A stretch of 37,618 bases of DNA, from positions 1-37,618 of the IMG/VR virus record IMGVR_UViG_3300020594_000163; one strand, written 5' to 3'. This DNA is from a virus (taxonomy: Duplodnaviria > Caudoviricetes). Positions 3,273 through 35,899 of this stretch are shown piece after piece. The stretch's first letter is position 1; the number at the start of each line of letters is the position of its first letter. Below the pieces are notes generated by a model. That model searched no databases, was not told where the DNA came from, and worked only from the letters and a program-made list of their open reading frames with translations. The position numbers and the translations under genes are program-made.

Positions 3273-3566
3273 TCAGGCATTCTCCTGGCCGTCATTGCGT
3301 CGCCCTCTAACCCTTATGAACTCTTTAAGTGCCATCTCAACCAGTTCGTCATCATCAACGTCATCGCTCACGAAAGCCCTCGCTTCATCATATAGCTCGT
3401 CATCAATAAAGACCTCAAGAAGTGCATTTAAACTCATTTCTCCAGAATCATTTTCATTCGAAATTAATCCAATAATTCTTTTGCATTGAGCGGCCTTGAC
3501 TGCTCTTGACCAAAGAAGATCTAAGCAATTTAATTCGGTTTCAGCATCCGGCTTTAAGCTTTCCAT
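3273..3566 (-). CDS. Small acidic protein with C-terminal VapB-antitoxin-like (DUF2191-type) segment; no adjacent toxin
   Basis: IDDELYDEARAFVSDDVDDDELVEMALKEFIRV resembles the IDD.LY..A......D...L...A...F.RV pattern of this antitoxin family. Confidence 0.55.
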   Translation of the reverse strand: MESLKPDAETELNCLDLLWSRAVKAAQCKRIIGLISNENDSGEMSLNALLEVFIDDELYDEARAFVSDDVDDDELVEMALKEFIRVRGRRNDGQENA

Positions 3567-3582
3567 TTCATTCCATTATCCT

Positions 3583-3628
3583 AAAAAAATCAAGCCCCAC
3601 CAGCGATTTCTCAAGCATGGTGAGGCTC
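3583..3628 (-). terminator. Intrinsic terminator
   Basis: GAGCCUCACCA...UGGUGGGGCUU stem followed by GA and U7. Confidence 0.65.
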
Positions 3629-3746
3629 AGCGCTCAGGTATATTCGAGCAAAAGTTTGTATTCAAGTGAAAAGCTAGTCAGGCCGCCGAACTTTCCCGGC
3701 AGTCAGCAAACATGAACAGGAGGTTTGGCCCGCTCTAGCTCTTCAT
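3583..3746 (-). ncRNA. Candidate structured small RNA or attenuating leader, about 165 nt
   Basis: Begins about 7 nt after a near-consensus promoter; 11-bp stem 3735-3745/3667-3677 enclosing two hairpins; further hairpin 3632-3649; ends in a terminator; no credible ORF. Confidence 0.6.
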
Positions 3747-3752
3747 GTCTAT

Positions 3753-3781
3753 ATTATAAAATTACATTTCCAGCTATTCAA
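3753..3781 (-). promoter_or_regulatory. Sigma70-type promoter driving the candidate RNA
   Basis: TTGAAT-17 bp-TATAAT with AT-rich upstream tract. Confidence 0.75.
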
Positions 3782-3879
3782 TAAATATTTGATTTATTTT
3801 CGTTTTAATATTGTCTTATCTGCGCGGATCAATATATTATAACGATGTAAGTTAACCCCTAACTATAAGTTGTTTTTAA

Positions 3880-4470
3880 TTGATCCAGATCCCTGAGAAT
3901 TTAGAATCTCTCGGGCGCGATGCTCTCCTGAAATTCGCGATGGACGTTAAAAACCAGCAGTCATTAATAAATTTTAATGAGTTCAACAGACTGAAGTTTT
4001 CGCCACCACCAGCACCTGAGGGCGTTGAGAAGCTGCCGAAGGCTCCTTTGCCGTTCAGTAGCTGGTTTGAATTCAGGATGTTCAGCACTCATCTCGAAAA
4101 GCTCGACTATGAGCCGCTGTCCATCGATTACGTGCGTAAACACAAGTACACCCCTGACTCCATCATTCCTGGAACCAACCTGCTTGTAGAGCTTAAGGGC
4201 TCTTTTGAAAAGGACGAGCCCGGCAAGTACCAAGCCATCCACGAGCAGTCGGGATATGCTTTTCTATTTGTCTTCCAGCGCCGTGGTACAGAGATAGCTT
4301 GGAAGAAGCCCCGCAAGGACGGATCACGGCTTCTTCATGAAGAATGGGTTGCATACCATAACAAGCGAGGCCTCCCATTCTATTGTACATTTGAAGATGA
4401 ATTCGAAGACTTCAAAAAGAGCAGAGCGTTCCTAGAAATATTTAAGCGTCACAAAATAACGCAACATTGA
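3880..4470 (+). CDS. T7 endonuclease I-like PD-(D/E)xK nuclease / Holliday junction resolvase
   Basis: YE...I.Y...HKYTPD...LLVELKG...FVFQ motif series; start codon uncertain (TTG 3880 or ATG 3940). Confidence 0.8.
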   Translation: MIQIPENLESLGRDALLKFAMDVKNQQSLINFNEFNRLKFSPPPAPEGVEKLPKAPLPFSSWFEFRMFSTHLEKLDYEPLSIDYVRKHKYTPDSIIPGTNLLVELKGSFEKDEPGKYQAIHEQSGYAFLFVFQRRGTEIAWKKPRKDGSRLLHEEWVAYHNKRGLPFYCTFEDEFEDFKKSRAFLEIFKRHKITQH

Positions 4471-4525
4471 AATATTTAAATTATTTTAATAATTTCTGTG
4501 TTTTGCGTAAAAACTCGAATATTAA

Positions 4526-4540
4526 TATGTTATAATAAAA
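4526..4540 (+). promoter_or_regulatory. Extended -10 promoter, copy 1 of TATGTTATAATAAAA
   Basis: TGtTATAAT; identical 15-mer at 21398-21412. Confidence 0.7.
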
Positions 4541-4573
4541 ACATAAAATAACAATAATAAGGAGTAACATGCA

Positions 4574-5287
4574 ATGTATATACGTATGAGCCAGTATTGC
4601 GACAAAGTTGTTGTCTTGAGGTCCGTCTCCCATGCCGTGGAGGCCTTCGACGCAAACGGGAACCCGCTCAAGGGCGTCCGCCGCAGCACTACTGAACAAA
4701 TCGCATCTTTCAACCTCGTCGAGCCCATCGTTCACCCCGAAATTTCCGACGAGAAGGCCCTTGAGTTCGAAGAGTGGCGCGAGTTTCAGCTGAAGCGCAT
4801 CCAGAAGGCGTACATAGAGCACGCAGCGGCCGGGAAACTTGGCGGCTACCCGCTGCTGAAGACCAAGAGCGGCATGGGGGACGAGTTGGCAAGGGTCGGC
4901 GAATTCAGCGGCCTCATCAGCACGATGATCGAGGTCCAGCCCGGCATGATCAAGAACATCATCAATGGCAAGAAGCAAGCTGACGATCAGCAGCTACAGG
5001 CAGGCAAGACGCTGAACGAAAGGGTTGTTAGCGAATCAATTTGTGAGCGCATCAAAGAGATCAGCGAAGACATTTTGCGCTACATGAGCCTCACAAACCG
5101 CAAAGGGACTGACATCTACACGATTCAGCAGACTCTCGACATGCGCGCAGCCTGGACCGCGCTGGGCTGTACGCTCGATAGCAGAGGTATCGGATACCCG
5201 AAAGTCACCGGAAACATTGACGGCAGAAACGCTGCTGAAGAAGGCCTGGAAATCTTCAACGACATCAAGAAAAACACGCTGGGTTGA
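4574..5287 (+). CDS. Hypothetical protein, 237 aa
   Basis: Long ORF, AAGGAG RBS, strong promoter, GC-biased third positions. Confidence 0.8.
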   Translation: MYIRMSQYCDKVVVLRSVSHAVEAFDANGNPLKGVRRSTTEQIASFNLVEPIVHPEISDEKALEFEEWREFQLKRIQKAYIEHAAAGKLGGYPLLKTKSGMGDELARVGEFSGLISTMIEVQPGMIKNIINGKKQADDQQLQAGKTLNERVVSESICERIKEISEDILRYMSLTNRKGTDIYTIQQTLDMRAAWTALGCTLDSRGIGYPKVTGNIDGRNAAEEGLEIFNDIKKNTLG

Positions 5288-5295
5288 CCAGGTCT

Positions 5296-5330
5296 GCCTG
5301 ATTCCTGCAATTGGGTTTCAGGCTTTTCTT
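5296..5330 (+). terminator. Probable intrinsic terminator
   Basis: GCCTGA...TCAGGC stem followed by TTTTCTT, between convergent genes. Confidence 0.5.
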
Positions 5331-5349
5331 GTGAGAGAATGATGCGCCA

Positions 5350-5547
5350 TCACGATGATTTCTTTCGGGATTCTTTCTTCTTTCGCAGCGTGATCGTTCC
5401 ATTTCTTTTTGAGACCGACCAGATAAGCGTATCGCCTGGCTTTACTCTCATTGCGTTGCACACAGATTCCGGCAGCTCAATCACTAGATCTCCGCTTCCA
5501 TCCCCCGCATCAAGGCACTCAACCGTCCATCTTTGTTGTTCAGTCAT
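5350..5547 (-). CDS. AbrB/MazE/SpoVT-family DNA-binding protein; no toxin downstream
   Basis: GDLVIELPESVCNAMRVKPGDTL swapped-hairpin pattern; ATG 5547 overlaps the upstream stop (ATGA). Confidence 0.75.
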   Translation of the reverse strand: MTEQQRWTVECLDAGDGSGDLVIELPESVCNAMRVKPGDTLIWSVSKRNGTITLRKKKESRKKSS

Positions 5548-5912
5548 TTCGGCAACCCCGCACCCGTCTTGATGCAACGCTCACATAGCTTCCAAACCCA
5601 TCCGTTCCGGACCTCTTCTCGGGCCGGATGGCGGCCACAGTATTGGCAGATCTGGTCCGTAGCCATCTCGATTGCGTAACCGATTGCCAGCAGGTGGGGC
5701 GGAGCAAAGGGGTAATCGACTTGCAGGTATCCATTTTTGGGCTTGCAGGTCATCGGGAAGTCGTACTCTTCGCTGACGATCTTCAGCGCATTCGCGAACC
5801 GCTGCCATCCCCTGTAGTTCTCGCCCAACCACCCAGACTCTACTGGCAGATCAGGCAATAGGTGACGTATGGGTGCAAGAGGATCTACTGGTTCGTTCCC
5901 GTCATTACTCAT
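5544..5912 (-). CDS. Hypothetical protein with C-terminal zinc ribbon
   Basis: CQYCG...KLCERC; ATG 5912 overlaps the end of the upstream gene. Confidence 0.7.
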   Translation of the reverse strand: MSNDGNEPVDPLAPIRHLLPDLPVESGWLGENYRGWQRFANALKIVSEEYDFPMTCKPKNGYLQVDYPFAPPHLLAIGYAIEMATDQICQYCGRHPAREEVRNGWVWKLCERCIKTGAGLPK

Positions 5913-6204
5913 GCCCAACCCCTTGGTTTGACAACAAAGCGCTTGGATCAATCTTTACTTCGTCAAGCAGCTTTTCAATCTGTAAAACAAAAGCATCATC
6001 AAATACTAACTCTGCGCTCCTGACCTCGAACTGACTATTAACCAGTCGACCGCACTCAGTCAAAATTCTGTCCCGTATCGCCTGTTTTATTAGTCTTGAT
6101 ATATCTTCGTCGCTCCTGAATCCCAGGGTTCTAAGCAACTTGAGGAGCGATAAGTCTGCATCGGCAGATAGAGTTATACGCCATTCATGCTTTGAGTCGC
6201 TCAT
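5905..6204 (-). CDS. Ribbon-helix-helix protein (XACb0070-like)
   Basis: WRITLSADADLSL..LL...G.....ISRLIKQAIRDRIL matches the family pattern as recalled; GGAG RBS. Confidence 0.6.
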   Translation of the reverse strand: MSDSKHEWRITLSADADLSLLKLLRTLGFRSDEDISRLIKQAIRDRILTECGRLVNSQFEVRSAELVFDDAFVLQIEKLLDEVKIDPSALLSNQGVGHE

Positions 6205-6501
6205 CGCTTTCTAGCTCCAGTTCATCGCTAGTCGCCTCTATATCACATGACTAGTCAGCTGTTGAGTGTTTTTACGGTTTTCTGCTGAATTGGCAAAGGA
6301 ACAAATCCAACACACTTGCCGATAGGTGTAATGACTTTGTTCCGCATTTCCTGATGATTGCTGGGCCAAATTGGATTTTGTGTGCTCATTTATGAGGCTC
6401 GTGGTCACGCCCTGGGGGCGTGTAGGCTTGGAAATATTGGACAGACTGGGCTGTTGCATGCATCCTGATTTGACTATCGGACAGATTCCTGAGCATAAGC
6501 A

Positions 6502-7245
6502 ATGAAGTTGCATATTCTTTCTGATTTACATAATGAGTTCGATGAGTTTGTGCCTACCCCTGCGGCTAGCGAAGCAGATGTTGTTATTCTGGCAGGTGAT
6601 ATTGATGTTGGAATCAGAGGGCTGGAGTGGGCTGACAGGGTATTTGATTGCCCGGTTCTTTACGTTCCAGGGAACCACGAATTCTATCACCACCACTTAG
6701 AGTACGTACTTGATGAGATGCGCAGGTTCAGCAGCAAGAAAGTAACTATGCTTGACATGAACGAAACGATAATGGGCGGCGTTAGATTTATCGGAGCAAC
6801 GATGTGGACGGATTTTGCGTGTACAGGAGACCCCGCTATTGCCGCTTTGTTCGCCCAGCAGAAGCTAAATGACTTTAAAGTAATACGCACTGATAATGAC
6901 AGAAAGCTTCGTCCCGCTGATTTAGTCAGGATATGTGAAAATACAAAATCTTGGTTGCGCTCAAAGCTAGAAGAGAAGTTTCACGAAAAGACTGTTGTAA
7001 TCACGCACCATGCGCCTCTGCTGCGTTCTCTTGAGCACAGCCCGTATCCAGACTCTCATCTTGACGCGGCCTTTGCAAACCACTTTGAAGACCTTTTTGA
7101 AGACGGAATGGCTGACTTATGGATACATGGTCACACGCATATCGCTGCTGACTATGACTTCAACAAGACGCGTGTGATCTCAAATCCGCGCGGGTATCAG
7201 CGTGAAGAAACATTGTTCAATCCGGACCTGGTTGTCGATCTATGA
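6502..7245 (+). CDS. Calcineurin-like metallophosphoesterase
   Basis: SDLH, LAGDI, PGNHE, THHAP, HGHTH, NPRGY motifs all intact. Confidence 0.92.
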   Translation: MKLHILSDLHNEFDEFVPTPAASEADVVILAGDIDVGIRGLEWADRVFDCPVLYVPGNHEFYHHHLEYVLDEMRRFSSKKVTMLDMNETIMGGVRFIGATMWTDFACTGDPAIAALFAQQKLNDFKVIRTDNDRKLRPADLVRICENTKSWLRSKLEEKFHEKTVVITHHAPLLRSLEHSPYPDSHLDAAFANHFEDLFEDGMADLWIHGHTHIAADYDFNKTRVISNPRGYQREETLFNPDLVVDL

Positions 7246-7415
7246 CTAAATCAAAAAGACAGACCCAAGACCGCGAAAGCTTCAAGCAAGAAGCCCTGGA
7301 GTCATGGGCAGATTACAAAGAAACCGGCTTGCACTTGACCGGGCCGGAAGCTCGAAATTGGCTGGCTACATGGGGCACAAAAGACGAAAAGTCGGTTCCA
7401 AAGTGCCACAAGTAG
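7242..7415 (+). CDS. 57-aa stand-alone C-terminal domain of a CopG/RHH antitoxin of RelE/ParE-type systems; absent from the ORF track
   Basis: Manual translation MTKSKRQTQDRESFKQEALESWADYKETGLHLTGPEARNWLATWGTKDEKSVPKCHK; ATGA overlap with the phosphoesterase stop; followed by a hairpin. Confidence 0.8.
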   Translation: MTKSKRQTQDRESFKQEALESWADYKETGLHLTGPEARNWLATWGTKDEKSVPKCHK

Positions 7416-7422
7416 CCACGAC

Positions 7423-7456
7423 CACCCCGCTGGCCGCCTTCCCGCGCAGCGGGGTG
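7423..7456. terminator. GC-rich hairpin between convergent operons
   Basis: CACCCCGCTG / CAGCGGGGTG perfect 10-bp inverted repeat; no clear U tract. Confidence 0.5.
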
Positions 7457-7472: not shown

Positions 7473-7988
7473 CTAAAAGAAGCAATAATTTCTGTACGGC
7501 ACGATGAAGCCAAGGGGCTTGATCAGCTCGTTTACCGCTCCTGCTGCGCGCTCGTTTTGGTTGAACTCACGTGGCGTGTAGCTCAATGCTACAGCAAGTG
7601 TCAGCACATCCGGCGATAGCGTTGCTGGATCGAACGACCAGATTTCAATGCGAGTTGCGTTCTCGTCTCGAAAGTCCGGCTCATCGATCATTTCTTTGTC
7701 AGCCAGAAACTCATCAAGCTGCTTGATGGGCACTGCGTACGTCTTCTGTGCTCGATCAGCAAGCATCGTTCGCTCGTCGAGATACGTGTCACCGACAGCG
7801 ACCAGGCCGGCACCGTGCTGACCCCGAACGTGGATTTCAGCGATTTTTGGTGATGAGACGTAGCCGCGCACGTCGCTCAGCTGTATGTAACCATCAACAA
7901 GCGAGAGCGTGTCTGTGAGCTTTTGCATCAAACCCGGCTCATTAGCCATCACTACGCACGTGAGCATCGTAGGCATCGTGTGCATCAT
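7473..7988 (-). CDS. Protein resembling the C-terminal domain of AbiEi-like (type IV TA) antitoxins, lacking the N-terminal HTH
   Basis: G.T.L...TML......TYAV, IEIWSFDP..LS, LSY, NER....VNELI motif order; coupled to the umuC stop. Confidence 0.5.
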   Translation of the reverse strand: MMHTMPTMLTCVVMANEPGLMQKLTDTLSLVDGYIQLSDVRGYVSSPKIAEIHVRGQHGAGLVAVGDTYLDERTMLADRAQKTYAVPIKQLDEFLADKEMIDEPDFRDENATRIEIWSFDPATLSPDVLTLAVALSYTPREFNQNERAAGAVNELIKPLGFIVPYRNYCFF

Positions 7989-9274
7989 GCGTTCACTCTC
8001 ATAACGTCACTCCATCTCGTCGTGTATTGGGGGCTCAGCAGCTGCTGCTTCATGTGCCAAGAAGCTACTGCTGGCTCACTCGCGAATCTAACCGAACCGC
8101 GCCCATGCGTCATGTTGATGCGATCCAGAACCGCCATCAGTTGCTCGGTGTTCTTTCGCGTAGGTTGGGCAAACAGGTCATCCGTGAACATGCCCGCATC
8201 GAAGAACTGGCTCAGGATCACCCCGGCTTTCGCGTATCGAGGGCCATCGATGTAGATCTGTTGCAGGCCGGCCACAGCAGCTGCAAGAAGGTCTCGCGTG
8301 TCGTACGTTGGACACGTTAGCGGCACACTGACCGAGCGACCGTACTGCATGCCTTTTGTGTCGAATGGGCTCGTGCGGATGAAGACCTGAAGGCACGCCG
8401 CATACTGCCTCTGCTCCCGCAGCTTCCGCGAAGCGTTGGCAACAAACGTCGAGATGGCGGTACGGAGGCCCTGGTAGCTGGTCACTCTTTCACTAAAGCT
8501 GCGCGTACAGGCGATCATTTGCTTGGGCTCAACGTCCTCGGTCAGCGACATGCAATATTCACCCGACAACTCACGTGATGTGCGCTCGACGTTGATATTG
8601 AACTGCCTACGCAGCGTTTTGGGGTCGTACGTTGCGAGATCCCAGGCCTTGTTGATATTCATGCCCTGGAGCTGCGTTGTGAGCCGCCTACCGATACCCC
8701 AGACCTCATCCACATCAGCGTAGCGGAGCAGCTTTTCTTGCTTCACGGGACAGCACAGATCGACCACGGCGCCGGTCTTCGTCTTCCACTTTTTCGATGA
8801 CCAGTTGGCGAGTTTCGCCAATGTTTTTGTGGTCGAAATGCCGACGCCTACTGGGATGCCGACCTCTCGGTAGACCGCTTGCTGGACGTGGCGTCCGAAA
8901 GCGTCGAGGTCGCGGTCAGGAATGCCGGTGAGATCGAGCCAGGCTTCGTCGATGCTGTAGGGCTCTATTTGCGGAGCCTCTCTGCGGAGCACGTGCATGA
9001 CTCGGTTGCTCAAGTCCTGGTACAGCGCGTAGTTGCTCGAAACGCAGATGAGCCCTTTGCGCTCGATCAACTCGCGGAGCTGGAAATGAGGCTAGCCCAT
9101 CTTCACGCCAAGGGCCTTCGCTTCGTCGCTACGTGAGACAGCGCAGCCGTCGTTGTTGGAGAGCGCGACGACGGGCTTTCCGAGCAACTCGGGACGGAAG
9201 AGGCGCTCAGCACTGACGTAGAAGCAATGACAATCGACTAGCCCGAAGCGCTTAATGGATTTGGCTTTTTGCAT
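7985..9274 (-). pseudogene. umuC: Y-family DNA polymerase V catalytic subunit (UmuC/RulB) interrupted by a single in-frame TAG at 9092-9094
   Basis: LVDCHCFYVSAER..SNNDGC..GVKMG*PHFQLRELIE..SSNYALY..YSIDEAWLD..SPQYTTRW; both track ORFs share one frame, 430 codons in total. Confidence 0.9.
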
Positions 9275-9277
9275 CGA

Positions 9278-9493
9278 TTAGCTCGTGAGCAAATCTTGCG
9301 AAAATGCCAAATCGTCGCCGTCGATCACGAGCCGAAGCTGACGGTGCGCGCCCATACGTGCCTGAAGGCGCTCCAGGTGCTTAACCCCCTCGTTGTTCAG
9401 CCGAACGATTTCTTCGCGAGAGAGCGAGCGCAGAAATTCGAGCTTCGCTTGCTGGTTGGCCAGCTTCATAGCCAACAGATCCTGGAATGTCAT
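9278..9493 (-). CDS. 71-aa hypothetical protein between umuD and umuC
   Basis: ATGA overlap with the umuD stop; ends 3 bp before the umuC ATG. Confidence 0.65.
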   Translation of the reverse strand: MTFQDLLAMKLANQQAKLEFLRSLSREEIVRLNNEGVKHLERLQARMGAHRQLRLVIDGDDLAFSQDLLTS

Positions 9494-9927
9494 GCTGCAC
9501 CTCGTTGCGGGTGGAGGTTGTACGTGACAACGCCCCAGACCTCGACTTGCTCATCTTCTCCCAAGCGGATTGGAGGGGATTCCGGATTCTCGGCTTTTAG
9601 CATCCGCACTGAGCCGGCGACGGCAAAGGTTTTCACAGTGAAGTCAGCGCCAATCCGAGCGACGATCACATCACCCGGCGCCGGTTCCAGGGCACGGTTG
9701 ATGATCAGGTAGTCGCGGTCGAAGATGCCTCTGCCGCACATGCTGTGCCCTGAAGCGCGGCCCACAAACATCGATGGTGCACGCATTCCAACAAGCTCGT
9801 CGAGGCTCAGCGGGGGCTCTTCGTGGTCAAGCCCTGGAGAAGGAAAGCCGCAGGGAAGCTGGCCCAGCTGCTGCATCAACTCTGGTTCGTCGGCTGGAAT
9901 AAGTGGGCGGATCTGAGTGGCGTACAT
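9490..9927 (-). CDS. umuD: DNA polymerase V subunit UmuD/RulA (S24 autopeptidase)
   Basis: CGFPSP cleavage site, GHSM catalytic Ser, FTVK catalytic Lys, WGVV. Confidence 0.93.
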   Translation of the reverse strand: MYATQIRPLIPADEPELMQQLGQLPCGFPSPGLDHEEPPLSLDELVGMRAPSMFVGRASGHSMCGRGIFDRDYLIINRALEPAPGDVIVARIGADFTVKTFAVAGSVRMLKAENPESPPIRLGEDEQVEVWGVVTYNLHPQRGAA

Positions 9928-9946: not shown

Positions 9947-9988
9947 CTGTATGAATACACAGTATAGGGGATTTCTGACAGATGCCAA
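9947..9988 (-). promoter_or_regulatory. LexA (SOS) box overlapping the umuD promoter
   Basis: CTGTATGAATACACAG (CTG-N10-CAG, 9947-9962); minus-strand TTGGCA-16 bp-TATACT overlaps it. Confidence 0.88.
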
Positions 9989-10091
9989 GGAATCCAGGAG
10001 GCCAGAAACGGCGCGGGTTTCAGCAGAGTTGCTGCCCGGTCGCTGAGCCGTTATGATGAATCCAACGGTGTCATCTGCTACGGAGGCCACA

Positions 10092-10247
10092 ATGACTACC
10101 AGAAACTCAGTCAAGCCGTCCGCGCCTGCGGTCAAGCGTAAGGTCATTAAGAATCAACTTACGTTTGCCGATGTACGAGAAGCAGCGAAGGCCGGCAATG
10201 AGGCATTTGAAAAGTACGTTGCGACTGGGAAAGTGACTGGTCGCTAA
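10092..10247 (+). CDS. 51-aa basic protein, probable antitoxin of the downstream YafO-like toxin
   Basis: GGAGG RBS at 10082-10086; ends 10 bp before the toxin gene. Confidence 0.6.
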   Translation: MTTRNSVKPSAPAVKRKVIKNQLTFADVREAAKAGNEAFEKYVATGKVTGR

Positions 10248-10257: not shown

Positions 10258-10683
10258 TTGTCGTCAGTAAAAGTCTCGGACCTCTTCAAAAAGTCCGAAA
10301 ATTGGTACAACTTCTACGCTCACTTCTACAACTACAAGCTCTGCAACGACCTCCCTGAAATTTTTGGAAGGGATGAAGAGCTTGATCTCGATGATATGCA
10401 CCACATCCATCTTGCTGCTAACGAGGCTGTGCAGGCTCGTTGGCGGGCAACAAGGATTCAGTATTATCGCACTACCGACAAAGACCTGCCCGAAGAAGAC
10501 TACTGGCTGATTTACGCCTATGAGCCTCTTCGTGAAGAATATCTCCTCGTCACGATTATTGGACCTGACGCACACTCAAGGAGTGAGTGGGGTTCGTACC
10601 TACGTAACTTGGCTGAGGAGGTCGTAGAGCCTTGGGTTCTTGGTCGAGTCAAATACACAGACCCGGACGAAGAGGACGAGTAA
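10258..10683 (+). CDS. yafO: YafO-family mRNA interferase toxin
   Basis: LP.IFGRD, MHHIHL, D.WLIY, PDAH motifs. Confidence 0.8.
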   Translation: MSSVKVSDLFKKSENWYNFYAHFYNYKLCNDLPEIFGRDEELDLDDMHHIHLAANEAVQARWRATRIQYYRTTDKDLPEEDYWLIYAYEPLREEYLLVTIIGPDAHSRSEWGSYLRNLAEEVVEPWVLGRVKYTDPDEEDE

Positions 10684-19285: not shown

Positions 19286-19370
19286 TATTAAAGCGTAAAG
19301 TAAATGCCGTATGGCAATGAGCCACTCGTGCTGGCATTATCTGGAGCCAGACCATTGGCATGGAGCGCTT

Positions 19371-20258
19371 ATGAAGAAGGCAGTTCTGGTTCTTGTAGTT
19401 TCTTCCATTGCGATTACCGCTTGTTCGAGCACTACTCGGCAAGAGAGATTGAGACAGCAGGTCGATCAGAATTTTGCGGATTACAAAGTAAACTTGGTGA
19501 ATAGCTGCTCGTACCAGGGTAAAGGAGTGGAAGTAGCAGACTACAAGCCTTACTTTGACAATGATTCTGTCAAGAAATCAGAGTACGAAACTCAGGCTCA
19601 GTACGCAGCAAGACTGAAAGCAAAGGTTCCTGAGTACATAACATTCCGGGCAAAAGCGGGCTACATGCAGTACAACGCAGAGACCGGGATAATGCGTGTT
19701 ACTGTCACGAGCTATGGCGCTCCTCAAGGTCAGCAGAATAACGAATTGACGGAGCAATTAAGCAAAGAAGCCGCCAATCCCATAGCGTCTTTCACTCTGA
19801 ATCCGTACGGAAGAAGTTATCCGAGAGTATTTATTGGCAGTGAAATCCCATATAGCGCACAACTAATGGGTGAAACAGCGTGGGGATATCAGAAAGAGTA
19901 CACTGCTGCGAGATCGGATGAGTATTACGTTTCACTTGGTATGCTTGATTCGAAAAAGTCATCAGTTGATCAGATCAACTACTACGCCGAAATCCCGATG
20001 ACCGGGTTTGAAGCACAAAGTGTAAAAGATAGCCTGGAGATTGAATTTACGATCAGAACAGTGGCGCCGTATCTGCTTTCGTTCAGAAAAGGTGCATCCA
20101 CGCCAACAATCTCTGATCCGTATGCAATCGCTCGTTTCCAGCACACTTTCGTTGGCGACTACTGCACAAGCACTTTCATCGATGCCAAAACAGGCAAGCA
20201 GTACAACGTGCCGCTGAAGGTTGATCTCCCGAAGCCCGACTACAGCTTCATACGATGA
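19371..20258 (+). CDS. Lipoprotein moron, inverted within the tail operon
   Basis: GGAG RBS; MKKAVLVLVVSSIAITAC lipobox; 3' end overlaps the convergent gene by 11 bp. Confidence 0.8.
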   Translation: MKKAVLVLVVSSIAITACSSTTRQERLRQQVDQNFADYKVNLVNSCSYQGKGVEVADYKPYFDNDSVKKSEYETQAQYAARLKAKVPEYITFRAKAGYMQYNAETGIMRVTVTSYGAPQGQQNNELTEQLSKEAANPIASFTLNPYGRSYPRVFIGSEIPYSAQLMGETAWGYQKEYTAARSDEYYVSLGMLDSKKSSVDQINYYAEIPMTGFEAQSVKDSLEIEFTIRTVAPYLLSFRKGASTPTISDPYAIARFQHTFVGDYCTSTFIDAKTGKQYNVPLKVDLPKPDYSFIR

Positions 20259-21927: not shown

Positions 21928-23817
21928 ATGAATTTGATTAAGCAAGTAGAAGTAGCGTACTTTAGGTCTATTTATAAAGATCAGCTTACCAATTGCTCAG
22001 GCACAAATATTATTTTTGGTAGGAACGATGCCGGCAAGAGCAATTTTCTTCGAGCGTTAAATCTCTTCTTTAATAACGAGACAAACCCGAATCAGGTTTT
22101 TAGGTTTGAGAGGGATTTTTCCCACACTCGCCAAGCTGAAGCTACGCCTGACAAAGATATCAAAAAGTTTGTATATGTAAAGGTTTGGTTCAAAACGCCA
22201 GAAAACTGGCAAGCGTCGCTGGGCGAATCGTTTTGGGTTAAAAAGCAATGGAGCATCACAAACCAGGAAACCCCAAAATTTTATTCTTCTATTGATGAAG
22301 CTAGACTGCAACAGTATCTGACAAGATTTCTCAATAAGATTCAGTTTCACTATATCCCAGCTATCAAAGACAGAAAGATCTTTGAAAGACTCCAGGCAGA
22401 GATTTACAAGGTGATTTCCGAACATGATGAGTTTTCGGGCTCTTTGAGGAATTTCACTGACGCACTTAGAAATAGAACCGAACAGTTAACTAATGGTTTG
22501 TTAGCTTCGCTCGGTATAAACAGCGCGGTATCTACACCGCGTGATCTTACGGACCTGTTCAGGTCGCTTGACTTTGAGGTCAGATCAGAAGAAGGCGACA
22601 CATATAGCCTGACGCTACAGCGGGGCGATGGTGTTCAGGTTCGCCATATTCCTCAGATTCTGTCTTTCCTTTCTGATAACGGCTCGAAGGAATACCATAT
22701 ATGGGGCTTCGAGGAGCCAGAGAACTCCCTTGAGCTAGCGAATGCGATTGAAGAGTCCAAGACTTTTCTCGCTATCGGTAACTCAAGAAATAAGCAGGTA
22801 TTCTTGACTAGCCATAGCCCAGCCTTCTTTTCGCTAAAGAATGAGGGCGTAAGCAGATACTTTGTGTCTCGTAGCCATGAGAGTCAAGGTCGCTTAAATT
22901 CAACAGTTCAAGAACTTCGGAGAGACTCTAAGCACCTGCCGAGCGAGTTGATGGGCGAGACTCCACATCTACCCGTGATCAGCAGTTATTTAGAGGAAGC
23001 ACATGCGGAGATTCAGCAATCAAAAGCTGACAAACAAGCTCTAGAACGAGAGCTTGCAGAGCGTAATACGTCAATTGTTTTTGTCGAGGGCGTTACTGAC
23101 GGCGCCGTCTTCAAAAAAGCTTGGGAAATATTTATTGGCGAAGAAATGCCGTTCAGTTTTGTTTCCGGCGGCGGAACTACAAAGATGCAGGCCTTATCAA
23201 GAAATGGAAAAGTGCTGGGAGCACTAGCGCCGGGACGTGCGGTTTTTGCCCTTGTTGACAATGATAAAGAGGGGCGCGAACTGTACGTCAATGGAAAGCT
23301 TGCCGATGGTGGTAGGTGGCTGCAAGATAACTCAAACGGTGTTTATTGGTGCAGGTTGCCATTTCTCGACGAATTAAAGCAGCTGATGTTGCATTGTAAT
23401 GTTGATAAAGCTGCTTGGCCGGGATGCCTGGAAAATATGTTCACCGCTGAGGTTAAGCATAGAGCTGTCGAATCAGGGGCATTAATACTTACTAAAAAGC
23501 CCCACGAAGAATTTTTGGGTGAGCACTTCATAAAAATTGCTGACTACATTGCCAGCCGTGAAGATCATCTTGAATATCATGTTCTTTGCGCGGTCCCGGC
23601 AAGCAAGGATACCTTCGCAGAGTGGGTAGTTGAACAAGCAGACCAAACCCCTGAAATTCTTGAGCCGTTGCGAAGAACGATAGAGGGCTTGCGGGATGTA
23701 TTGGACCGGATTGCTGCCGAAGCTGCCCAGGCACCTGCACCTGCACCTGCACCTGCTCAGGCTGCTGCACAGGCACCTGCTCAGGCTCAGGCTCCCAATC
23801 AGGCAGCAGCGGTTTAA
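21928..23817 (+). CDS. OLD-family-like ABC ATPase-TOPRIM nuclease, probable anti-phage protein
   Basis: Walker A GRNDAGKS, signature-like GDGVQ, Walker B/D-loop GFEEPENSL, H-loop TSHSP, TOPRIM VFVEGVTD...GG...DND. Confidence 0.85.
   Translation: MNLIKQVEVAYFRSIYKDQLTNCSGTNIIFGRNDAGKSNFLRALNLFFNNETNPNQVFRFERDFSHTRQAEATPDKDIKKFVYVKVWFKTPENWQASLGESFWVKKQWSITNQETPKFYSSIDEARLQQYLTRFLNKIQFHYIPAIKDRKIFERLQAEIYKVISEHDEFSGSLRNFTDALRNRTEQLTNGLLASLGINSAVSTPRDLTDLFRSLDFEVRSEEGDTYSLTLQRGDGVQVRHIPQILSFLSDNGSKEYHIWGFEEPENSLELANAIEESKTFLAIGNSRNKQVFLTSHSPAFFSLKNEGVSRYFVSRSHESQGRLNSTVQELRRDSKHLPSELMGETPHLPVISSYLEEAHAEIQQSKADKQALERELAERNTSIVFVEGVTDGAVFKKAWEIFIGEEMPFSFVSGGGTTKMQALSRNGKVLGALAPGRAVFALVDNDKEGRELYVNGKLADGGRWLQDNSNGVYWCRLPFLDELKQLMLHCNVDKAAWPGCLENMFTAEVKHRAVESGALILTKKPHEEFLGEHFIKIADYIASREDHLEYHVLCAVPASKDTFAEWVVEQADQTPEILEPLRRTIEGLRDVLDRIAAEAAQAPAPAPAPAQAAAQAPAQAQAPNQAAAV
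23725..23808 (+). repeat. Degenerate hexamer tandem repeat encoding an AP/AQ tail
   Basis: (GCACCT)x4 at 23731-23754 with GCTCAG, GCACAG and GCCCAG variants. Confidence 0.85.
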
Positions 23818-29407: not shown

Positions 29408-29833
29408 TCAGTTAAACATAAATGAATTATCAGGATACTTTACGTTTTTCGGTGAATCGTACGCTTCCGGACAATTACGCAAAGCCTCACGGTACTGAGC
29501 AAGAGTCAAACGCCTACCGCCCACATCTTCTCCCAATATTTGCTTATCACTGAGAATCTTCTCGTAATTATCAGCAGCTTTGAGTAGTGAATCGCGCTTT
29601 GTACGTACAATTGACCAGTCTACCGCCTTCCTCTTGATGACTCGATTGAACGCCATTTCGGGTTCAACAAGCACATAATTGAACTGATTCATGATTCCAG
29701 CCCGCATATTCTCAGCCTCGACATCCGTCACCTCGACAGAACGAAACTTGTCAGACTTGGTTTCTGAGATATAGAGAACCTGTAGATCCTGGTTAACGAT
29801 TGCAAATTGAGACATGTGATCCTCCTTGATCAC
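29408..29833 (-). CDS. Tail fibre assembly chaperone-like protein
   Basis: VRTKRDSLLKAAD...YREALRNCPE...YP motif; directly after the fibre gene. Confidence 0.75.
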   Translation of the reverse strand: MIKEDHMSQFAIVNQDLQVLYISETKSDKFRSVEVTDVEAENMRAGIMNQFNYVLVEPEMAFNRVIKRKAVDWSIVRTKRDSLLKAADNYEKILSDKQILGEDVGGRRLTLAQYREALRNCPEAYDSPKNVKYPDNSFMFN

Positions 29834-31524
29834 TGAACTTTAATGTATGACTTGGCTCCGGATGCGGCAGGGATGTTCGGCAGCTTCCACTTTTCAGTTT
29901 CGTTGAAAGCAACGGACAGGAGCTTGATGTCGCGGTTGTTCGAGCCGTGGGTCACGACCAGGGTTCCGTTCGAGCGGGGGTGGAACTGAACGGCCTTGAG
30001 GTTCGCTGAGTAGTCTTGCTGCGTCTGAAGATTGATGGGGTCAAGACTAGTGAAGTTGCTCGTCTTGAACACGTCGCCGGCATCGTTTGCCAACAGCACA
30101 GACTGCCCGACGAGTCTTGCGGATGTGAAAGCCTGAGGCAGCGTTATGGTGACAGTGGATACGAGCTGCTCAACATCAAAAAGGACGGCCTTCACGAGAT
30201 CTGTGAGGTAGAGCTTGCCGTCTATGACGAACATGCGGTCAACGGCACTGACGCCGACGTAGCGGGACTGGGTGGCCTCCAAATCTGCGGCTTCGAAGCT
30301 GTCGGCGATGTGGATGTTCGCTCCAGCGTGAACGGCGATTTTGTTGCCAATTCGCTTGATGCAAGTGGGGCGGTAGCCGGAGTAGGAGCCCCAGGATGCT
30401 GATGCCGTAACAAGGCTCCAGGTGACAGCATCAAGGGACGAGTACACTGAAGCGCCGACAAGAGCGTAGAAGCTCGATGTTACGGCGTCGTAGTGCATCA
30501 GGGCAGATTTGGAGTCGTCAGAGATCGTTGCTAGCTGAGCGTGCTCGAAGCTCAACAAGTCTGTACTGACTGCGATCTCGACGATGCGGTTGCCGTAGTC
30601 GCCGAATGCTTCGCTCATGAAGACGTGCTTCGTACCATCTGTTGCATAGCCGGAGATAGCCTCGCCGCTGGTTTGGTCTCCAGCAACGCAGGGTGCAGCC
30701 TGAGGATCACTGAACAGGGAAATAGCTCGCTGTGTGAGCGAAGCCAGGTCGCCCGACACGACATTGACTGTCAATGAGCGAGGAGAAAGCAGGCAGATTG
30801 AGTCAGAAATCTCGACAGCTAAGGTATTGAGCTGCGCCTTCCAGTCGCTCTCACCGGCAGTCACAGAGCCCAGAAAGTTTGCGTACCAGATCGAGCCGGC
30901 AGGCACTTTTTCAATGTATTCGCTGCCTTCAAGGTCGGGATACCAAGACATCTCGAATAGGCTGCCGTCGCATGCAAGCCATGGGAATGCCTGAGCTTTC
31001 ACGAACTGCGAGATCTGCCCAGCAACGAAGCCAGAGCCGCTGGAACCACCCGTGGCGCTACCGCAGTCGATGGAATTGCCGTCAGATAGAAACAGGTAGA
31101 GATTGCCCCACGGCTGGATGACAGCTCCGACAACCGAGATGCCGTTGCTTCCGTTGATGCCGTTGTCGCCTTTCACCGTACCAAGAGGTACAACGCTGCC
31201 ATCGCTCATCGAGATATTGAGCTGGCCGTCAGTCAGCGTGATGTTTGCGATCCCGCGACCGTCGTCTCCGTCACGCCCATCGCGCCCTGGAATTCCCTGG
31301 ATACCCTGCGGGCCTTCGGCACCGGCAGGAAGGTAGCCAGCGGAGAGTTGTCGGCCATCCGTGAGCTTGAATATGAGGTTTCTGGCTTCGTTGACGTAGA
31401 TATCATCGACACCCACGCCAGCAGTTCCTGTATCGCCTTTCTTGCCCGCTACGACGAGCACATTGCCCACCGAAACCGACACCTCTTGGGTATTTTCAAT
31501 TGTTGATACGCTATCCATGCGCAC
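29830..31524 (-). CDS. Tail fibre / receptor-binding protein with collagen-like repeats and collar domain
   Basis: GXY repeats (GPQGIQGIPGRDGRDGDDG), G.I...WLACDG....YPDL collar start, C-terminal KLPNI...YIK. Confidence 0.8.
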   Translation of the reverse strand: MRMDSVSTIENTQEVSVSVGNVLVVAGKKGDTGTAGVGVDDIYVNEARNLIFKLTDGRQLSAGYLPAGAEGPQGIQGIPGRDGRDGDDGRGIANITLTDGQLNISMSDGSVVPLGTVKGDNGINGSNGISVVGAVIQPWGNLYLFLSDGNSIDCGSATGGSSGSGFVAGQISQFVKAQAFPWLACDGSLFEMSWYPDLEGSEYIEKVPAGSIWYANFLGSVTAGESDWKAQLNTLAVEISDSICLLSPRSLTVNVVSGDLASLTQRAISLFSDPQAAPCVAGDQTSGEAISGYATDGTKHVFMSEAFGDYGNRIVEIAVSTDLLSFEHAQLATISDDSKSALMHYDAVTSSFYALVGASVYSSLDAVTWSLVTASASWGSYSGYRPTCIKRIGNKIAVHAGANIHIADSFEAADLEATQSRYVGVSAVDRMFVIDGKLYLTDLVKAVLFDVEQLVSTVTITLPQAFTSARLVGQSVLLANDAGDVFKTSNFTSLDPINLQTQQDYSANLKAVQFHPRSNGTLVVTHGSNNRDIKLLSVAFNETEKWKLPNIPAASGAKSYIKVQ

Positions 31525-32057: not shown

Positions 32058-32077
32058 TATTTTATGATAGTACCCAG

Positions 32078-32794
32078 TTATTCGTCCGCATCAATATCCG
32101 AAGGGTCTACAACATCGTAGTTTGAGTGAAGCTCACGTGCTATATAGAAAAGCGCCTGCGGATTTGTCTTGCGATAGTCCTCGTCGTAAAGCTCACGCAG
32201 GGCCTTCAGGTCGATTCCTGTTTCACTAAGAATATTCTCATGGGCAGCAATCAATTCACCCTGAATTGAGCCAAATTTCCTGCGATGCTCAGATAGTGTG
32301 TACTGCTTTCTGATGTAGATAAGTCTACCAATCAGCGCATCAATGTCATATTTCTTGACCTGAGCTTCAATAGTTTTCTTTACTACCTCTTGTGCTTCAG
32401 CAGCTTGTTTCTGAGCATCAACAAGACCTGGTGTGGCTTGCTCAATTTTAGCCTTAATCTCAGCAATCTTATCGATTTTTGCCTGATATTCTTGCTTTGC
32501 AACAAGTGCCGCTCTGGTTTTGGATTCGATCTCAGCCAGCCTGGATTCCAGATTTGCAAGCTCTGTATCAGTAGCCTCTTGCTCTTCAATGGCTTTCAAG
32601 GCAGAAAGGGCAGGCTCTGCCTTCTCTTTAAATACATCTAGCTTGTTGTGATTAATCTTCGAATTACTGACTACCCAGCGCTTTCTATCTGAGTCCCATT
32701 TAGCTGTCTTGAAGATCTCTTTAAAAGCGTCTTTTAGATCGAATGGGAAGGATATAAGCAGTGATTTTCCTTCTTCTCTTGCAGTGATTTCCAT
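32078..32794 (-). CDS. Hypothetical protein with HARP-like N-terminus and coiled coil (moron)
   Basis: ISFPFDLKDAFK...AKWD...KRW; lower GC; own promoter cassette. Confidence 0.7.
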   Translation of the reverse strand: MEITAREEGKSLLISFPFDLKDAFKEIFKTAKWDSDRKRWVVSNSKINHNKLDVFKEKAEPALSALKAIEEQEATDTELANLESRLAEIESKTRAALVAKQEYQAKIDKIAEIKAKIEQATPGLVDAQKQAAEAQEVVKKTIEAQVKKYDIDALIGRLIYIRKQYTLSEHRRKFGSIQGELIAAHENILSETGIDLKALRELYDEDYRKTNPQALFYIARELHSNYDVVDPSDIDADE

Positions 32795-32821
32795 GATTGC
32801 TTCCTTTGTTGTTTGTTTATA

Positions 32822-32929
32822 TTTATAGTATAACGTACTTTAATTGAGTTTAAACACGGGAAATAAAAATAATTGTAAAATAAATGCGCAAGTAAGGTGC
32901 GGCGGAAGATGTATAGGTAAAACTATTTT
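32822..32929 (-). repeat. Dispersed promoter-cassette repeat, copy A
   Basis: 21 bp identical to 37377-37397 (TTTATAGTATAACGTACTTTA), similarity continuing to ATGTATAGGT(A/G)AAACTATTTT. Confidence 0.85.
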
Positions 32930-32951
32930 ATTTGTCAGGTATTTTCGAAGG

Positions 32952-34499
32952 CTAATAGTCATCATCATCGTAATAATCAGCTGTTTCAGGCAGCTCTATA
33001 ACAATGTCTTGTTCGAAAGTAATAGCTTTACGAGACCACTTCAGAAACTGGGAAAGGGCGTCAACTTGGTCGTCATGCTTGACTAACGGGAAGTTGATCA
33101 TCTCTTGCTCGAAGTCGTACATCCATGCGGCCGACTCCGGCAGCCACACCAGCCCAGCTTCAAGCAGCGGAGCTTGGGAGGACATGCGGATGACCTTGCC
33201 TGCCTCGGGCTCGATACGAATCACCGGCAAGCCTTCCTCGCGCATGTCTTGAATCAGCGACTGGCCGGAGGCTTTGTCTTCAACGAGAACTGCAACAGGC
33301 CCATGAAGCTCGCAGAGAGCGAATACGGTGCGTTTGAGGTTCGGGTATGTCACCCGCTTACGCCACACGTCGAGGATGTACCAGCGCTTCCGGTACTTGC
33401 CCAGGACGATGGCTACTGATGGGTCGTTCTGCTGGGCCTCCTTGTATGCAGTGTCGCAACTGATGACGATCTGGTCGAAATCGACGGGAGCCTCGCGGTA
33501 ACGCTGGAACCACCCAAGCTCGATCATGCCGCCAGTTTCGGGGGTGGGGCGCTGCTGGTACTGGCCGGAGAACATGTACGGCGCGGCATCCCGCATGACC
33601 ACCAGCTCGGCGACGGTGTGCTTGAAAGGCCACAGAGCAACCAGCTCACCGTCTTCGTTTTCACGCAGCGCCGGCAGTTCAAGGTGGGTCCATTTCTCGC
33701 CCGTAGCACCGCCCAACAAGAACCCGGTGGTGTCTTCCTCATGCAGGCGCTGCATAACCACGATGATGGGCGTTTTGCGGCTGTTTACGCGGCTGCCGAT
33801 CGTGTTGACCATGCGGCCATTGATGGTCTTCCTAAGCGCCGCAGATTCAGCGTCAGCGGGCTTAATCGGGTCATCGACAATGATTGCGCCGTAGAACTTG
33901 CCGTCATCAGCGGCCTCGTTGACCCACTCCAGCTCAATGCCAAGGGCCTTCAGCTCTTCAAGGTGCGATTTATCTTCGTCACCCTCGGCAGTCTCGGCAG
34001 AGGTAGACCCAGCACCAAAACCAGTGACGGCACCGCCTGAGGACGTGGCATACACACCACCGCCTGCGGTCGTGTACCACTTCTTCTTCGATTTCGCGTC
34101 GTCTTTGAGCTTTACCTCTGGCCATAGCTCTTGGAACTCATCAGAGATGATGATCTCCTTCACTTTCGAGCTGTTATCGAGTGCCAATTCGTCCGAGTAG
34201 CTGAGATGAATGAATTTGGCACGTGGGTTGACCGCAATAGACCACGCTATGAACATGATCACGATCAGCTCTGTCTTGCCGTACCTGGGTGGCATGTTGA
34301 CGATGAGGCGCACGATCTCGGATGTCGTGCAGGACATCAGGTAGCGAACAATCTCGTAGTGATGTTCCGCTAGAATGAATTTTTTGCCTTCGCGCTTCCG
34401 GAAGAAGTAGCAGACAAAAAATATGAAGCTTGTTTCGCAGAGATGCTTCGTAATAGCTCTGACCGCCAGGGCTGCCTGACTGTTTAACGCAGCAGACAC
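32952..34499 (-). CDS. terL: Terminase large subunit
   Basis: MPPRYGKT Walker A, IIVDDP Walker B, YQQRP, SCDTA, HDDQVDA nuclease motifs. Confidence 0.95.
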   Translation of the reverse strand: MSAALNSQAALAVRAITKHLCETSFIFFVCYFFRKREGKKFILAEHHYEIVRYLMSCTTSEIVRLIVNMPPRYGKTELIVIMFIAWSIAVNPRAKFIHLSYSDELALDNSSKVKEIIISDEFQELWPEVKLKDDAKSKKKWYTTAGGGVYATSSGGAVTGFGAGSTSAETAEGDEDKSHLEELKALGIELEWVNEAADDGKFYGAIIVDDPIKPADAESAALRKTINGRMVNTIGSRVNSRKTPIIVVMQRLHEEDTTGFLLGGATGEKWTHLELPALRENEDGELVALWPFKHTVAELVVMRDAAPYMFSGQYQQRPTPETGGMIELGWFQRYREAPVDFDQIVISCDTAYKEAQQNDPSVAIVLGKYRKRWYILDVWRKRVTYPNLKRTVFALCELHGPVAVLVEDKASGQSLIQDMREEGLPVIRIEPEAGKVIRMSSQAPLLEAGLVWLPESAAWMYDFEQEMINFPLVKHDDQVDALSQFLKWSRKAITFEQDIVIELPETADYYDDDDY

Positions 34500-34877
34500 T
34501 TAGCAGTATTCCTTTAGAAGCGCTGTCGTGATCGCTGCCAACTGGGCTTCTGAAAGTTCTACCGCACCCTCGGTCTTGATCGCATCGCCATTTTCGCCGG
34601 TCAGCTCAGTCTTGTTCGTTTCTTTCCAACCAGCCTGCGTCTTCAGATAGAAGAAGATCGAAGCCGGATGCCCAGCCATCACTTTCTTATAGAGCTGCCC
34701 AGCAGCCATGCCAATAGCTACGTTTTTGCCATTGTCATAGTCTTCTTGGCAGTGTCTTTGAAGAGTACGCTTATTGAGCTTGAGAACAGATGCAATCTGA
34801 TCCCACGTTAATCCGTAGCCGGCAAGCTCAGCGATTAAAGTTCTTTGTGCAGAAGTGATTTCAACTGGTAACGTCAT
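34500..34877 (-). CDS. terS: Terminase small subunit
   Basis: HTH (GLTWDQIASVL...RTL), FYLKTQAGWKE, ELTGENG; abuts terL. Confidence 0.85.
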   Translation of the reverse strand: MTLPVEITSAQRTLIAELAGYGLTWDQIASVLKLNKRTLQRHCQEDYDNGKNVAIGMAAGQLYKKVMAGHPASIFFYLKTQAGWKETNKTELTGENGDAIKTEGAVELSEAQLAAITTALLKEYC

Positions 34878-34923
34878 AATTATCCCCGCCATCCTTGGCA
34901 AAGATAATTATATGGCTTATATG

Positions 34924-35604
34924 TTATTTGATAAAGATATTATCGAAAATAACAATATCCGGCAGAATGTCATACAAAGCGAGAAGTTGCTTGTTCTCAG
35001 TCAAAATACTGAGAGCAATATCTTCGATATGACTAGCGCTCGGAACCCCATTGACTTGATACAAAGAAGTGCTTTGGGCGAGTTTGATGCAACGTGCTCC
35101 GTTCACTTTGAAGCAATAGGCGTGATATGTCTGGTAAATGTCGTCAACATCGATGTTTCCGCACCATCCACATTTCTCTTCATCTTCAAGCGTAGCGATG
35201 TCGCCTCGCTCATTTCGAAGAGTGAAATAGATTGAGAAAGATGGAAAAGGAAAAGCGAGGCGATCAATGTAGAAGTCATTATCGACAGTCGCATGTTCAA
35301 AGCAAAACGAAACAACACCTTCTTTGAGAAGCTTTGGATCAAGCTCCACGGCTGTCTCAGCATACTCCCGAAGCTCAAGAACGGAAGCAACAGTCTTCTC
35401 ATCGTTCTCAGCGAATCTAGCAACACCACCGGCATGAGCAACTGGAGGAAAGCTCTCTTCTACAAATTTCTTAACAGCTTCGAAGTTGAATTTAAGATCA
35501 ATCACTTGAGGCATCCAGGTCAGAAGATGCCGAAAATCTAGCGATATAAATTGCAAAGTCAATTGCGGGTTATTTGGCAACAAAACGCACGGTGAAATTG
35601 TCAT
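34924..35604 (-). CDS. Hypothetical protein, 226 aa
   Basis: Long lower-GC ORF; no motif recognised. Confidence 0.65.
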   Translation of the reverse strand: MTISPCVLLPNNPQLTLQFISLDFRHLLTWMPQVIDLKFNFEAVKKFVEESFPPVAHAGGVARFAENDEKTVASVLELREYAETAVELDPKLLKEGVVSFCFEHATVDNDFYIDRLAFPFPSFSIYFTLRNERGDIATLEDEEKCGWCGNIDVDDIYQTYHAYCFKVNGARCIKLAQSTSLYQVNGVPSASHIEDIALSILTENKQLLALYDILPDIVIFDNIFIK

Positions 35605-35641
35605 TCAGCTACAAAAAACTGTAATTGAAAGCAAAAATTTG

Positions 35642-35899
35642 TTATTTGGTGTCAATAGGTTTGGCAACAATGTTTGCCTTGGGGGCATTGAACTTAGCGT
35701 CAGGAGATGTGGGCGGCAAGGATAGGGCGTCAACGATGCTGCCGGGCTTGATGATGAGCTGCTGGTAGTGAGCTTGAGAGATCAGCACAAACGCAGGCTT
35801 GCCGCCTTCTGTGACGAATACCGGGGCTTCCTGGGATGCTTTCAGCGCGGCTTTAGGGTGCAGATCAAGCTCTTCAGTCGTGATTTCGTTGCTCATCAT
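35642..35899 (-). CDS. Phd/YefM-family antitoxin-like protein; no recognisable toxin adjacent
   Basis: APVFVTEGGKPAFVLIS...YQQL and SIVDAL pattern; GGAGGAG RBS. Confidence 0.75.
   Translation of the reverse strand: MMSNEITTEELDLHPKAALKASQEAPVFVTEGGKPAFVLISQAHYQQLIIKPGSIVDALSLPPTSPDAKFNAPKANIVAKPIDTK

Follow-up and report, generated by a model that had tools for sequence, protein, structure and literature searches.

What becomes of antitoxin genes that are parted from their toxins is a question raised by a 37,618-nucleotide stretch of Caudoviricetes DNA, IMG/VR record IMGVR_UViG_3300020594_000163, which was analysed at its full length and is hereafter called the window. An original prediction, made from the sequence alone, had picked out six open reading frames (ORFs) resembling antitoxins of different classes, and proposed that the element uses domesticated antitoxin halves to neutralise toxins of its host or of competitors, or to repress their promoters. 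The element is probably a relaxase-bearing tailed prophage, judging from its gene content, and its host is likely Pseudomonas because the named relatives of the cargo genes are Pseudomonadaceae. The record is a linear virus sequence of 37.6 kb and possibly incomplete (CheckV completeness estimate 36%). Five of the six ORFs lie within 4.7 kb, between the relaxase gene and a umuDC operon. Seven syntenic sister elements were available for comparison (G001/L047, L060, L061, L062, L063/L064, counted once, G557 and G509), most of which cover the window only in part; G001/L047 is classed as a provirus, and G509 lies inside a 6.4-Mb contig, split into pieces.

The observation behind the prediction was largely right, and its interpretation holds for about two of the six genes, which have the anatomy of neutralisers; the other four do not. 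The six do not form one arsenal but three mixed pairs. The reading we prefer, with confidence falling just short of even, is partial domestication, in which two toxin-binding halves would act as decoys, two DNA-binding halves as regulators, and two orphans would be drifting.

All six ORFs are present. Where independent public runs cover the region they repeat it without differences, run X7 spanning the junctions of the metallophosphoesterase gene, the CopG fragment and the gene at 7473, and run X8 spanning the Phd gene; misassembly of the cargo junctions was rejected, as the independent sequences agree there. The antitoxin family assignments were on the whole upheld, four by best Pfam match and two by homology. 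The four Pfam matches (VapB, MazE, RHH_6 and Phd) all lie under their gathering cut-offs; that four of six ORFs should have an antitoxin-type best match among 24,736 models at E<5e-3 is, judging from the E-values, far beyond chance. Foldseek returned nothing at E<=1e-3, all Atlas feature matches were <0.9, and no plasmid match was found for the RHH_6-like and VapB-like ORFs.

A six-frame search of the (possibly incomplete) record, in which positive controls worked, did not find PIN, ParE, PemK or AbiEii toxins, and seven toxin queries run on the window matched yafO alone. None of the six ORFs adjoins a cognate toxin, as had been claimed, although the element does carry a YafO toxin. Four ORFs are indeed trimmed to one half, but two of these keep the DNA-binding and not the toxin-binding half. 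The clean starts, ribosome-binding sites or coupling that had been noted come down to a strong Shine-Dalgarno sequence in Phd only, and ATGA overlaps at which the AbrB, CopG-fragment and AbiEi-like genes start.

Candidate toxin-binding parts

The CopG fragment (7242-7415, plus strand) encodes 57 amino acids (aa) that correspond to the C-terminal, toxin-binding half of a CopA(SO)/ParE-type antitoxin. It had no match in the Pfam copy searched; CopG antitoxins that adjoin RelE/ParE toxins match it at 77% identity over their C-terminal half, the homology beginning at residue 44 of 90 in the paired antitoxin. At the DNA level, the stretch that matches intact copG-parE operons begins near 7267 and ends with the stop codon, and in ungapped comparison with locus L071 the identity is 111/150 in the core against 11/54 upstream and 15/60 after the stop. 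A parE remnant behind the fragment was rejected, since identity drops to 25% right after the stop. Aligned via PDB 7etr, the fragment runs from CopA(SO) residue 48 to the end, which is the whole toxin-binding domain, and keeps the equivalents of E54 and E86, both reported as necessary for neutralisation (PMC8706911). It thus resembles ParE(SO)-CopA(SO) of prophage CP4So (PDB 7etr; PMC8706911) in this domain and its key residues, and differs in having no ribbon-helix-helix (RHH) domain, no parE, a new 8-codon start and coupling to a phosphoesterase gene; the full-length protein P0002 matches RHH_1 and P0001 gives no such match. Measured against six intact relatives, pN/pS is 0.12-0.29, like that of intact pairs.

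Homologues of the fragment occur in 35 of 301 genomes. In the 30 loci examined, of 38 matches, parE sequence is always present (broken in 4) and the RHH is present in 29; a second copy of the truncated allele was found neither among five protein matches nor among these 30 loci, and the 61-aa protein match P0005 looks like a late start call. The gene to which the fragment is coupled, a metallophosphoesterase (6502-7245, plus; PF00149 E 6e-13), belongs to a block at about 5940-7450 that is not in the sisters, and no close relative of this RHH/phosphoesterase/CopG block was found. Translated by that coupling, the peptide would bind ParE toxins of co-resident elements, and would not repress their operons because it has no DNA-binding domain. 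The fragment is a likely candidate for a ParE decoy and offers a small testable case, a 57-aa peptide that is exactly a ParE-binding domain.

The other part is a stand-alone domain of 171 aa (7473-7988, minus strand) that resembles the C-terminal, neutralising domain of AbiEi and is encoded by the last gene of the umuDC operon (umuD, a small ORF and umuC; 7985-9927, minus). A LexA-box-type palindrome lies 20 nt upstream of umuD (9947-9962, plus); one match is found in the window where 0.56 are expected by chance, and it is therefore informative by position only. The protein has no Pfam, NCBIfam or PADLOC match. It aligns to the C-terminal domain of proteins of 300-355 aa bearing a winged helix-turn-helix (wHTH; hhalign 95.9%), and has no N-terminal winged helix itself, wHTH matches being confined to the long relatives, upstream of the common part. 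Its stand-alone family, of 155-170 aa, has 79 representatives at E<=1e-3. The gene stands directly behind umuC in 7/7 sister elements and is under purifying selection (dN 0.15-0.16, dS 1.35-1.5 against sisters).

The resemblance is to the AbiEi/AbiEii system of Streptococcus agalactiae, type IV and since reclassified as type VII (PDB 6y8q; bioRxiv 10.64898/2026.01.19.700257), and consists of a weak fold match to the C-terminal region of AbiEi together with long relatives built of a wHTH and the shared domain. Unlike that system, the gene at 7473-7988 has no wHTH, toxin, or Pfam or PADLOC AbiEi match, and it ends a umuDC operon. One long relative precedes a nucleotidyltransferase-like gene. The neighbours in loci L173 and L174 drew no name from Pfam, PADLOC or NCBIfam and carry a GG..R.T.DID motif that we take to be AbiEii-like; sequence searches of solved structures with the L173 neighbour and with alignment A3 gave nothing useful. 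Made with the SOS-type umuDC operon, the domain would bind AbiEii/MenT-type nucleotidyltransferase toxins during induction. This unnamed, conserved family tied to an SOS-type operon is a second testable case.

The umuC gene has a premature stop at codon 61 (9092-9094, minus), in a region matched without differences in run X7; a frameshift was rejected, the stop being in frame. Among the sisters umuC is intact in G001, L061 and L062; in G557, G509 and L063 it is either broken or lacks a part, so that the operon decays repeatedly. A fusion of a hypothetical domain with an Xre/MbcA/ParS toxin-binding domain (L061:1766-2344, L156, L158-L160, L062:1225-1836) repeatedly adjoins a stand-alone AbiEi-like gene, with no toxin seen, and a two-gene module is possible.

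DNA-binding halves and diverged orphans

The VapB-type half (3273-3566, minus) matches PF09957 below the cut-off (E 1.6e-3) over residues 54-90; its DNA-binding part covers about residues 50-90, and the N-terminal extension is unrelated. It is 46-49% identical to VapB of VapBC pairs, and a low-confidence structure model in the Atlas gives a TM of 0.59 for its RHH. The match ends at residue 88-90 of 97, and paired relatives run about 25 aa further, so the tail that binds VapC is absent. The nearest relatives outside the sisters (L147/L148) are full VapB proteins adjoining a PIN toxin. Sister G557 has a similar tail-less gene in the same slot, with homologous upstream DNA and 59% identity, and pN/pS between the two is 0.24 over 36 codons.

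The AbrB/MazE-fold DNA-binding domain (5350-5547, minus) matches PF04014 at E 6.7e-5, with 23.2 bits against a cut-off of 24.7 that its relatives L128, L130 and L137 pass, and phrog_661 (PHROG 661 family) at E 5e-9. Its gene is coupled to a conserved hypothetical gene (5544-5951, minus), and in sisters a domain related to the latter forms a fusion with an MbcA/ParS toxin-binding domain; some plasmid relatives of the AbrB-like ORF are themselves fused to MbcA/ParS domains. G557, with two copies, and G509 have AbrB-like genes in this slot; dN is 0.34 and dS 1.66 against G557, and the family occurs in 15 of 201 genomes. In the 18 loci tested there was no PemK, ParE or YafO match and no pairing with MazF/PemK (0/18), and one VapC gene lay 1.2 kb away. 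As the VapB-like and AbrB-like proteins are without the toxin-binding region of paired relatives, regulation is their likely role, and both are probably small solo regulators. They would repress promoters of the element itself or cross-repress toxin-antitoxin operons.

The Phd/YefM-family gene (35642-35899, minus; PF02604 E 2.2e-3) is a full-length, strongly diverged orphan, about 40% identical over 81-83 aa to Phd of Phd-VapC pairs; vapC is present with 24 of 25 of its relatives. Its terminal branch is 2.56 against a median of 0.069, and its pN/pS is 0.67-0.70. The gene keeps its frame, a strong ribosome-binding site and its hydrophobic core, retaining 15/19 conserved hydrophobic, Gly, Pro or Ala positions against 4/12 polar ones (Fisher p 0.02, with position classes chosen after seeing the alignment). 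The protein therefore looks folded, though neither functional surface is canonical; a sequence search of solved structures gave nothing useful. Behind it, a possible but weak 11-codon decayed stub of the vapC 5' end (35605-35640, minus) scores within the highest 0.33% of positions in the window when these are compared with a profile of the VapC N-terminus. Variant contigs of run X12 carry the Phd gene, and in one of them, with 30 differences in 737 nt, the only indel lies outside the Phd ORF, a 1-nt insertion at the vapC-like stub. In G509 the Phd slot has nothing in it, and in G001 it is taken up by other genes.

The last ORF is a diverged XACb0070/RHH_6-type orphan (5905-6204, minus; PF16762 E 4.9e-3, below cut-off) with one weak relative in 221 genomes, L145, an RHH_6 antitoxin adjoining a PIN_3 toxin (31% identity over 68 aa). 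Its last 12 or so codons run into backbone DNA common to a sister. Both the Phd and RHH_6 genes may be decaying or drifting.

Evolutionary rates and homologue neighbourhoods had been put forward as checks on domestication. Selection is evident on the three parts that sisters share, namely the solo AbiEi-like domain, the VapB-type RHH and the AbrB domain, but the ratio for Phd is high; in the 18 loci tested the AbrB family is free of PemK, ParE and YafO, and the relatives of CopG and Phd are mostly paired with toxins.

Competing explanations

Several observations weigh against partial domestication. The CopG fragment may owe its low pN/pS to the time before its truncation, and the ratio cannot be dated to after that event because no second copy of the truncated allele was found. 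Locus L087, the lone locus of the 30 without the RHH, is a relic of recent origin on a chromosome; it retains the same C-terminal half and has an in-frame ATG, a cut parE and one conserved Trp changed, and its clean start means that decay can mimic clean truncation. The AbiEi fold match is tied with nucleotidyltransferase folds, AbiEi did not come up when solved structures were searched with a profile, and the broken umuC upstream could be polar on the AbiEi-like gene in this isolate. Phd has lost R8, N11, K18 and R31 (R8 to E, R31 to G), its columns 1-36 have a net charge of -3 against +1 to +4, and its tail has a charge of +1 against -3 to -7 in 26 sequences of the paired family; R10 and R31 are needed for DNA binding in YefM (PMC4803016), to which the Phd residues are presumably equivalent. 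Finally, five of the six genes are patchy among sisters, VapB being found in 1/4, AbrB in 2/5, RHH_6 in 0/5, the CopG fragment in 0/5 and Phd in 0/2.

This patchiness is what would be expected if the genes were relics or hitchhikers, cassettes that land in variable slots and lose the toxin first while the antitoxin lingers, with the 171-aa gene and perhaps the two DNA-binding genes kept for unrelated reasons. The relic at L087 and a more decayed piece of the same CopG gene at L067, the possible vapC stub, the rate and branch length of Phd, the RHH_6 ORF ending in backbone DNA and the broken umuC point the same way, as does a Klebsiella survey in which most orphan antitoxins were judged degraded and about 20% genuine (PMC7354431). 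We consider this account unlikely, if far from negligible: the CopG fragment differs from all relatives tested at 65-82% of synonymous sites and has kept its interface, both its boundaries fall at functional edges, and Phd retains its frame and core positions, with the variant contig's only indel outside it. Distinctly unlikely, in our view, is that the genes have taken up new jobs unrelated to toxins, the 171-aa domain having as its partner either the adjacent hypothetical or MbcA-fusion gene or the operon of the error-prone polymerase, and the small genes acting as regulators of the element. The stand-alone 155-170 aa family is wide and also found on megaplasmids without umuC or toxin, in 4/5 non-sister chromosomal loci it adjoins an MbcA/ParS-C fusion gene, and AbrB relatives were not seen adjoining toxins; this would leave unexplained both why the CopG fragment is cut exactly to its toxin-binding part and why the neighbouring fusion gene has a toxin-binding domain.

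The coordinated six-gene arsenal of the original prediction, with DNA-binding halves silencing host toxin-antitoxin promoters, would suit six different antitoxin classes, five of them within 4.7 kb, as in anti-defence islands that end at umuCD and hold orphan antitoxins (PMC11541004). It is very unlikely, given mixed strands and origins, the absence of five of the six genes from most sisters, an AbrB family without a toxin link here and a Phd that has lost both surfaces. The cargo also lies behind the relaxase gene, which by the geometry we assume is presumably the late-entering side.

In the sisters themselves these slots are occupied by different solo antitoxin parts, which makes the pattern lineage-wide. 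A 74-aa MazE/PemI-like gene with a C-terminal tail lies directly upstream of umuD in G001, L062 and L063/64, and no MazF was found beside it in these three (L047:7775-7999, L062:3760-3984, L063:6747-6971). MbcA/ParS C-terminal fusions occur in L061, L062, G557 and G509 (the G557 copy by tblastn only), and seven toxin queries, among which RES-type toxins were not included, found no toxin in the sister stretches searched. It is conceivable, if rather doubtful, that the lineage runs an exchangeable library of antitoxin-derived decoys, in which a conserved, stand-alone AbiEi-type C-terminal domain, coupled to SOS, would be the anchor and disarm host nucleotidyltransferase toxins at induction, together with swappable ParE-, RES-, MazF- and VapC-directed parts; if true, this would be the toxin-antitoxin analogue of orphan immunity gene arrays. 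Apparent solo antitoxins are also seen in unrelated Pseudomonas cargo, VbhA before an AbrB-like gene (L141:889-1848) and DUF6088 behind a metallophosphoesterase (L066:5001-6479), and such solos may therefore be a general trait of these hotspots.

Phage orphan antitoxins in counter-defence reportedly include an antitoxin mimic of ICP1. AdfN (NADAR) is a phage orphan antitoxin that counters DarTG1 (PMC11825919), and T4 Dmd acts against RnlA/LsoA (as cited in PMC7354431). The genes described here are like these three in being phage-borne and antitoxin-like, without a toxin, and proposed to act against the toxin of another replicon; they are unlike those single, tested genes of lytic phages in being of several classes, some cut to one domain, exchangeable among sister prophages and as yet candidates. 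Conjugative elements carry anti-defence islands with oriT at one boundary and umuCD at the other (Samuel et al. 2024, PMC11541004), which share with this element a relaxase, a umuDC boundary and orphan antitoxins in the cargo; our element differs in being a tailed prophage with cargo downstream of the relaxase gene, and no anti-CRISPR, anti-restriction, SSB or methylase genes were recognised in it. Whether orphan type II antitoxins are functional in anti-addiction or counter-defence, or are remnants, is described as open (PMC7354431, PMC11825919). Our literature search, the coverage of which excluded subscription papers and supplements (that of PMC11541004 among them), turned up neither a study of this phage lineage nor one of a comparable set drawn from several classes. 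Within that coverage, counter-defence by orphan antitoxins and their presence in islands bounded by umuCD are already known, and the mixed, exchangeable set with its one conserved unnamed family appears to be new.

The YafO pair and the rest of the element

The element's one complete toxin-antitoxin-like pair is predicted to be a module of its own. The YafO-family toxin (10258-10683, plus) matches PF13957 above the cut-off (E 9.3e-10) and has 59 homologues; the predicted antitoxin (10053-10247, plus) is a 64-aa ORF of no Pfam family, with Met14 as its likely start. Eleven yafO loci were fetched, of which L163, starting at the toxin, was left out, and a homologue of the partner lies directly upstream of yafO in 9/10 viral loci with upstream sequence. 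A model of the complex scored 0.68 against 0.00 for the best control, and the mark applied to such scores was reached by 116/157 solved pairs and 2/215 mismatched pairs; at least 75% of contacts recur between runs, with a partner pLDDT of 58 or more, which supports binding of the toxin by the partner. YafO with an unannotated partner of about 55-64 aa is common in Pseudomonas viral contigs (L162, L164-L171), and the element thereby gives an unannotated putative antitoxin family for Pseudomonas YafO toxins. Phd as a trans-acting antitoxin of YafO was rejected, because a dedicated partner exists and Phd relatives pair with VapC. The yafNO genes of the type II system follow dinB. The pair here is like YafNO in its toxin, small upstream gene and position beside an SOS polymerase operon, and unlike it in a partner that is not YafN/Phd-like and in being divergent from umuDC. 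RNA-library contigs X12/X13 cover the pair and parts of several genes; DNA was possibly present in the libraries, contigs give no ranking of genes, and these contigs were not used as evidence.

The mobilisation module that borders the cargo region (1442-3246) consists of a MobC-like protein (1442-1804, plus; PF21983 E 9e-5) and a MOBP-type relaxase (1819-3246, plus; PF03432 E 3e-20, NF041893 E 3e-12), and is joined to a tailed temperate phage gene set (10714-34901); the window genes include terminase, portal, protease, major head, tail, tape measure and lysis genes. The relaxase is about 35% identical to sister relaxases where neighbouring genes are 80-96% identical, which suggests that modules have been exchanged. 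The record yielded no recognisable integrase or repressor, and no viral-contig relatives of the relaxase, Phd or phosphoesterase were found.

Other genes of possible defensive function lie outside the cargo region. An AAA/OLD-like ATPase in the morphogenesis region (21928-23817, plus), with AriA/GajA-like PADLOC matches and a repeat-rich C-terminus, occupies a site that holds other genes in G001 and could be a defence moron, and a lipoprotein-like ORF (19311-20258, plus), which lies among the tail genes but on the strand opposite to theirs and is not in G001, might act in superinfection exclusion. G001 itself encodes SieB and a T4 Rnl1-type RNA ligase (L053:610-2518), possibly a counter to tRNA-cleaving defences. 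An unusual gene order, with the tail fibre and assembly genes placed between those for terminase and portal (29830-31524 and 32952-34499), is common to the window and G001.

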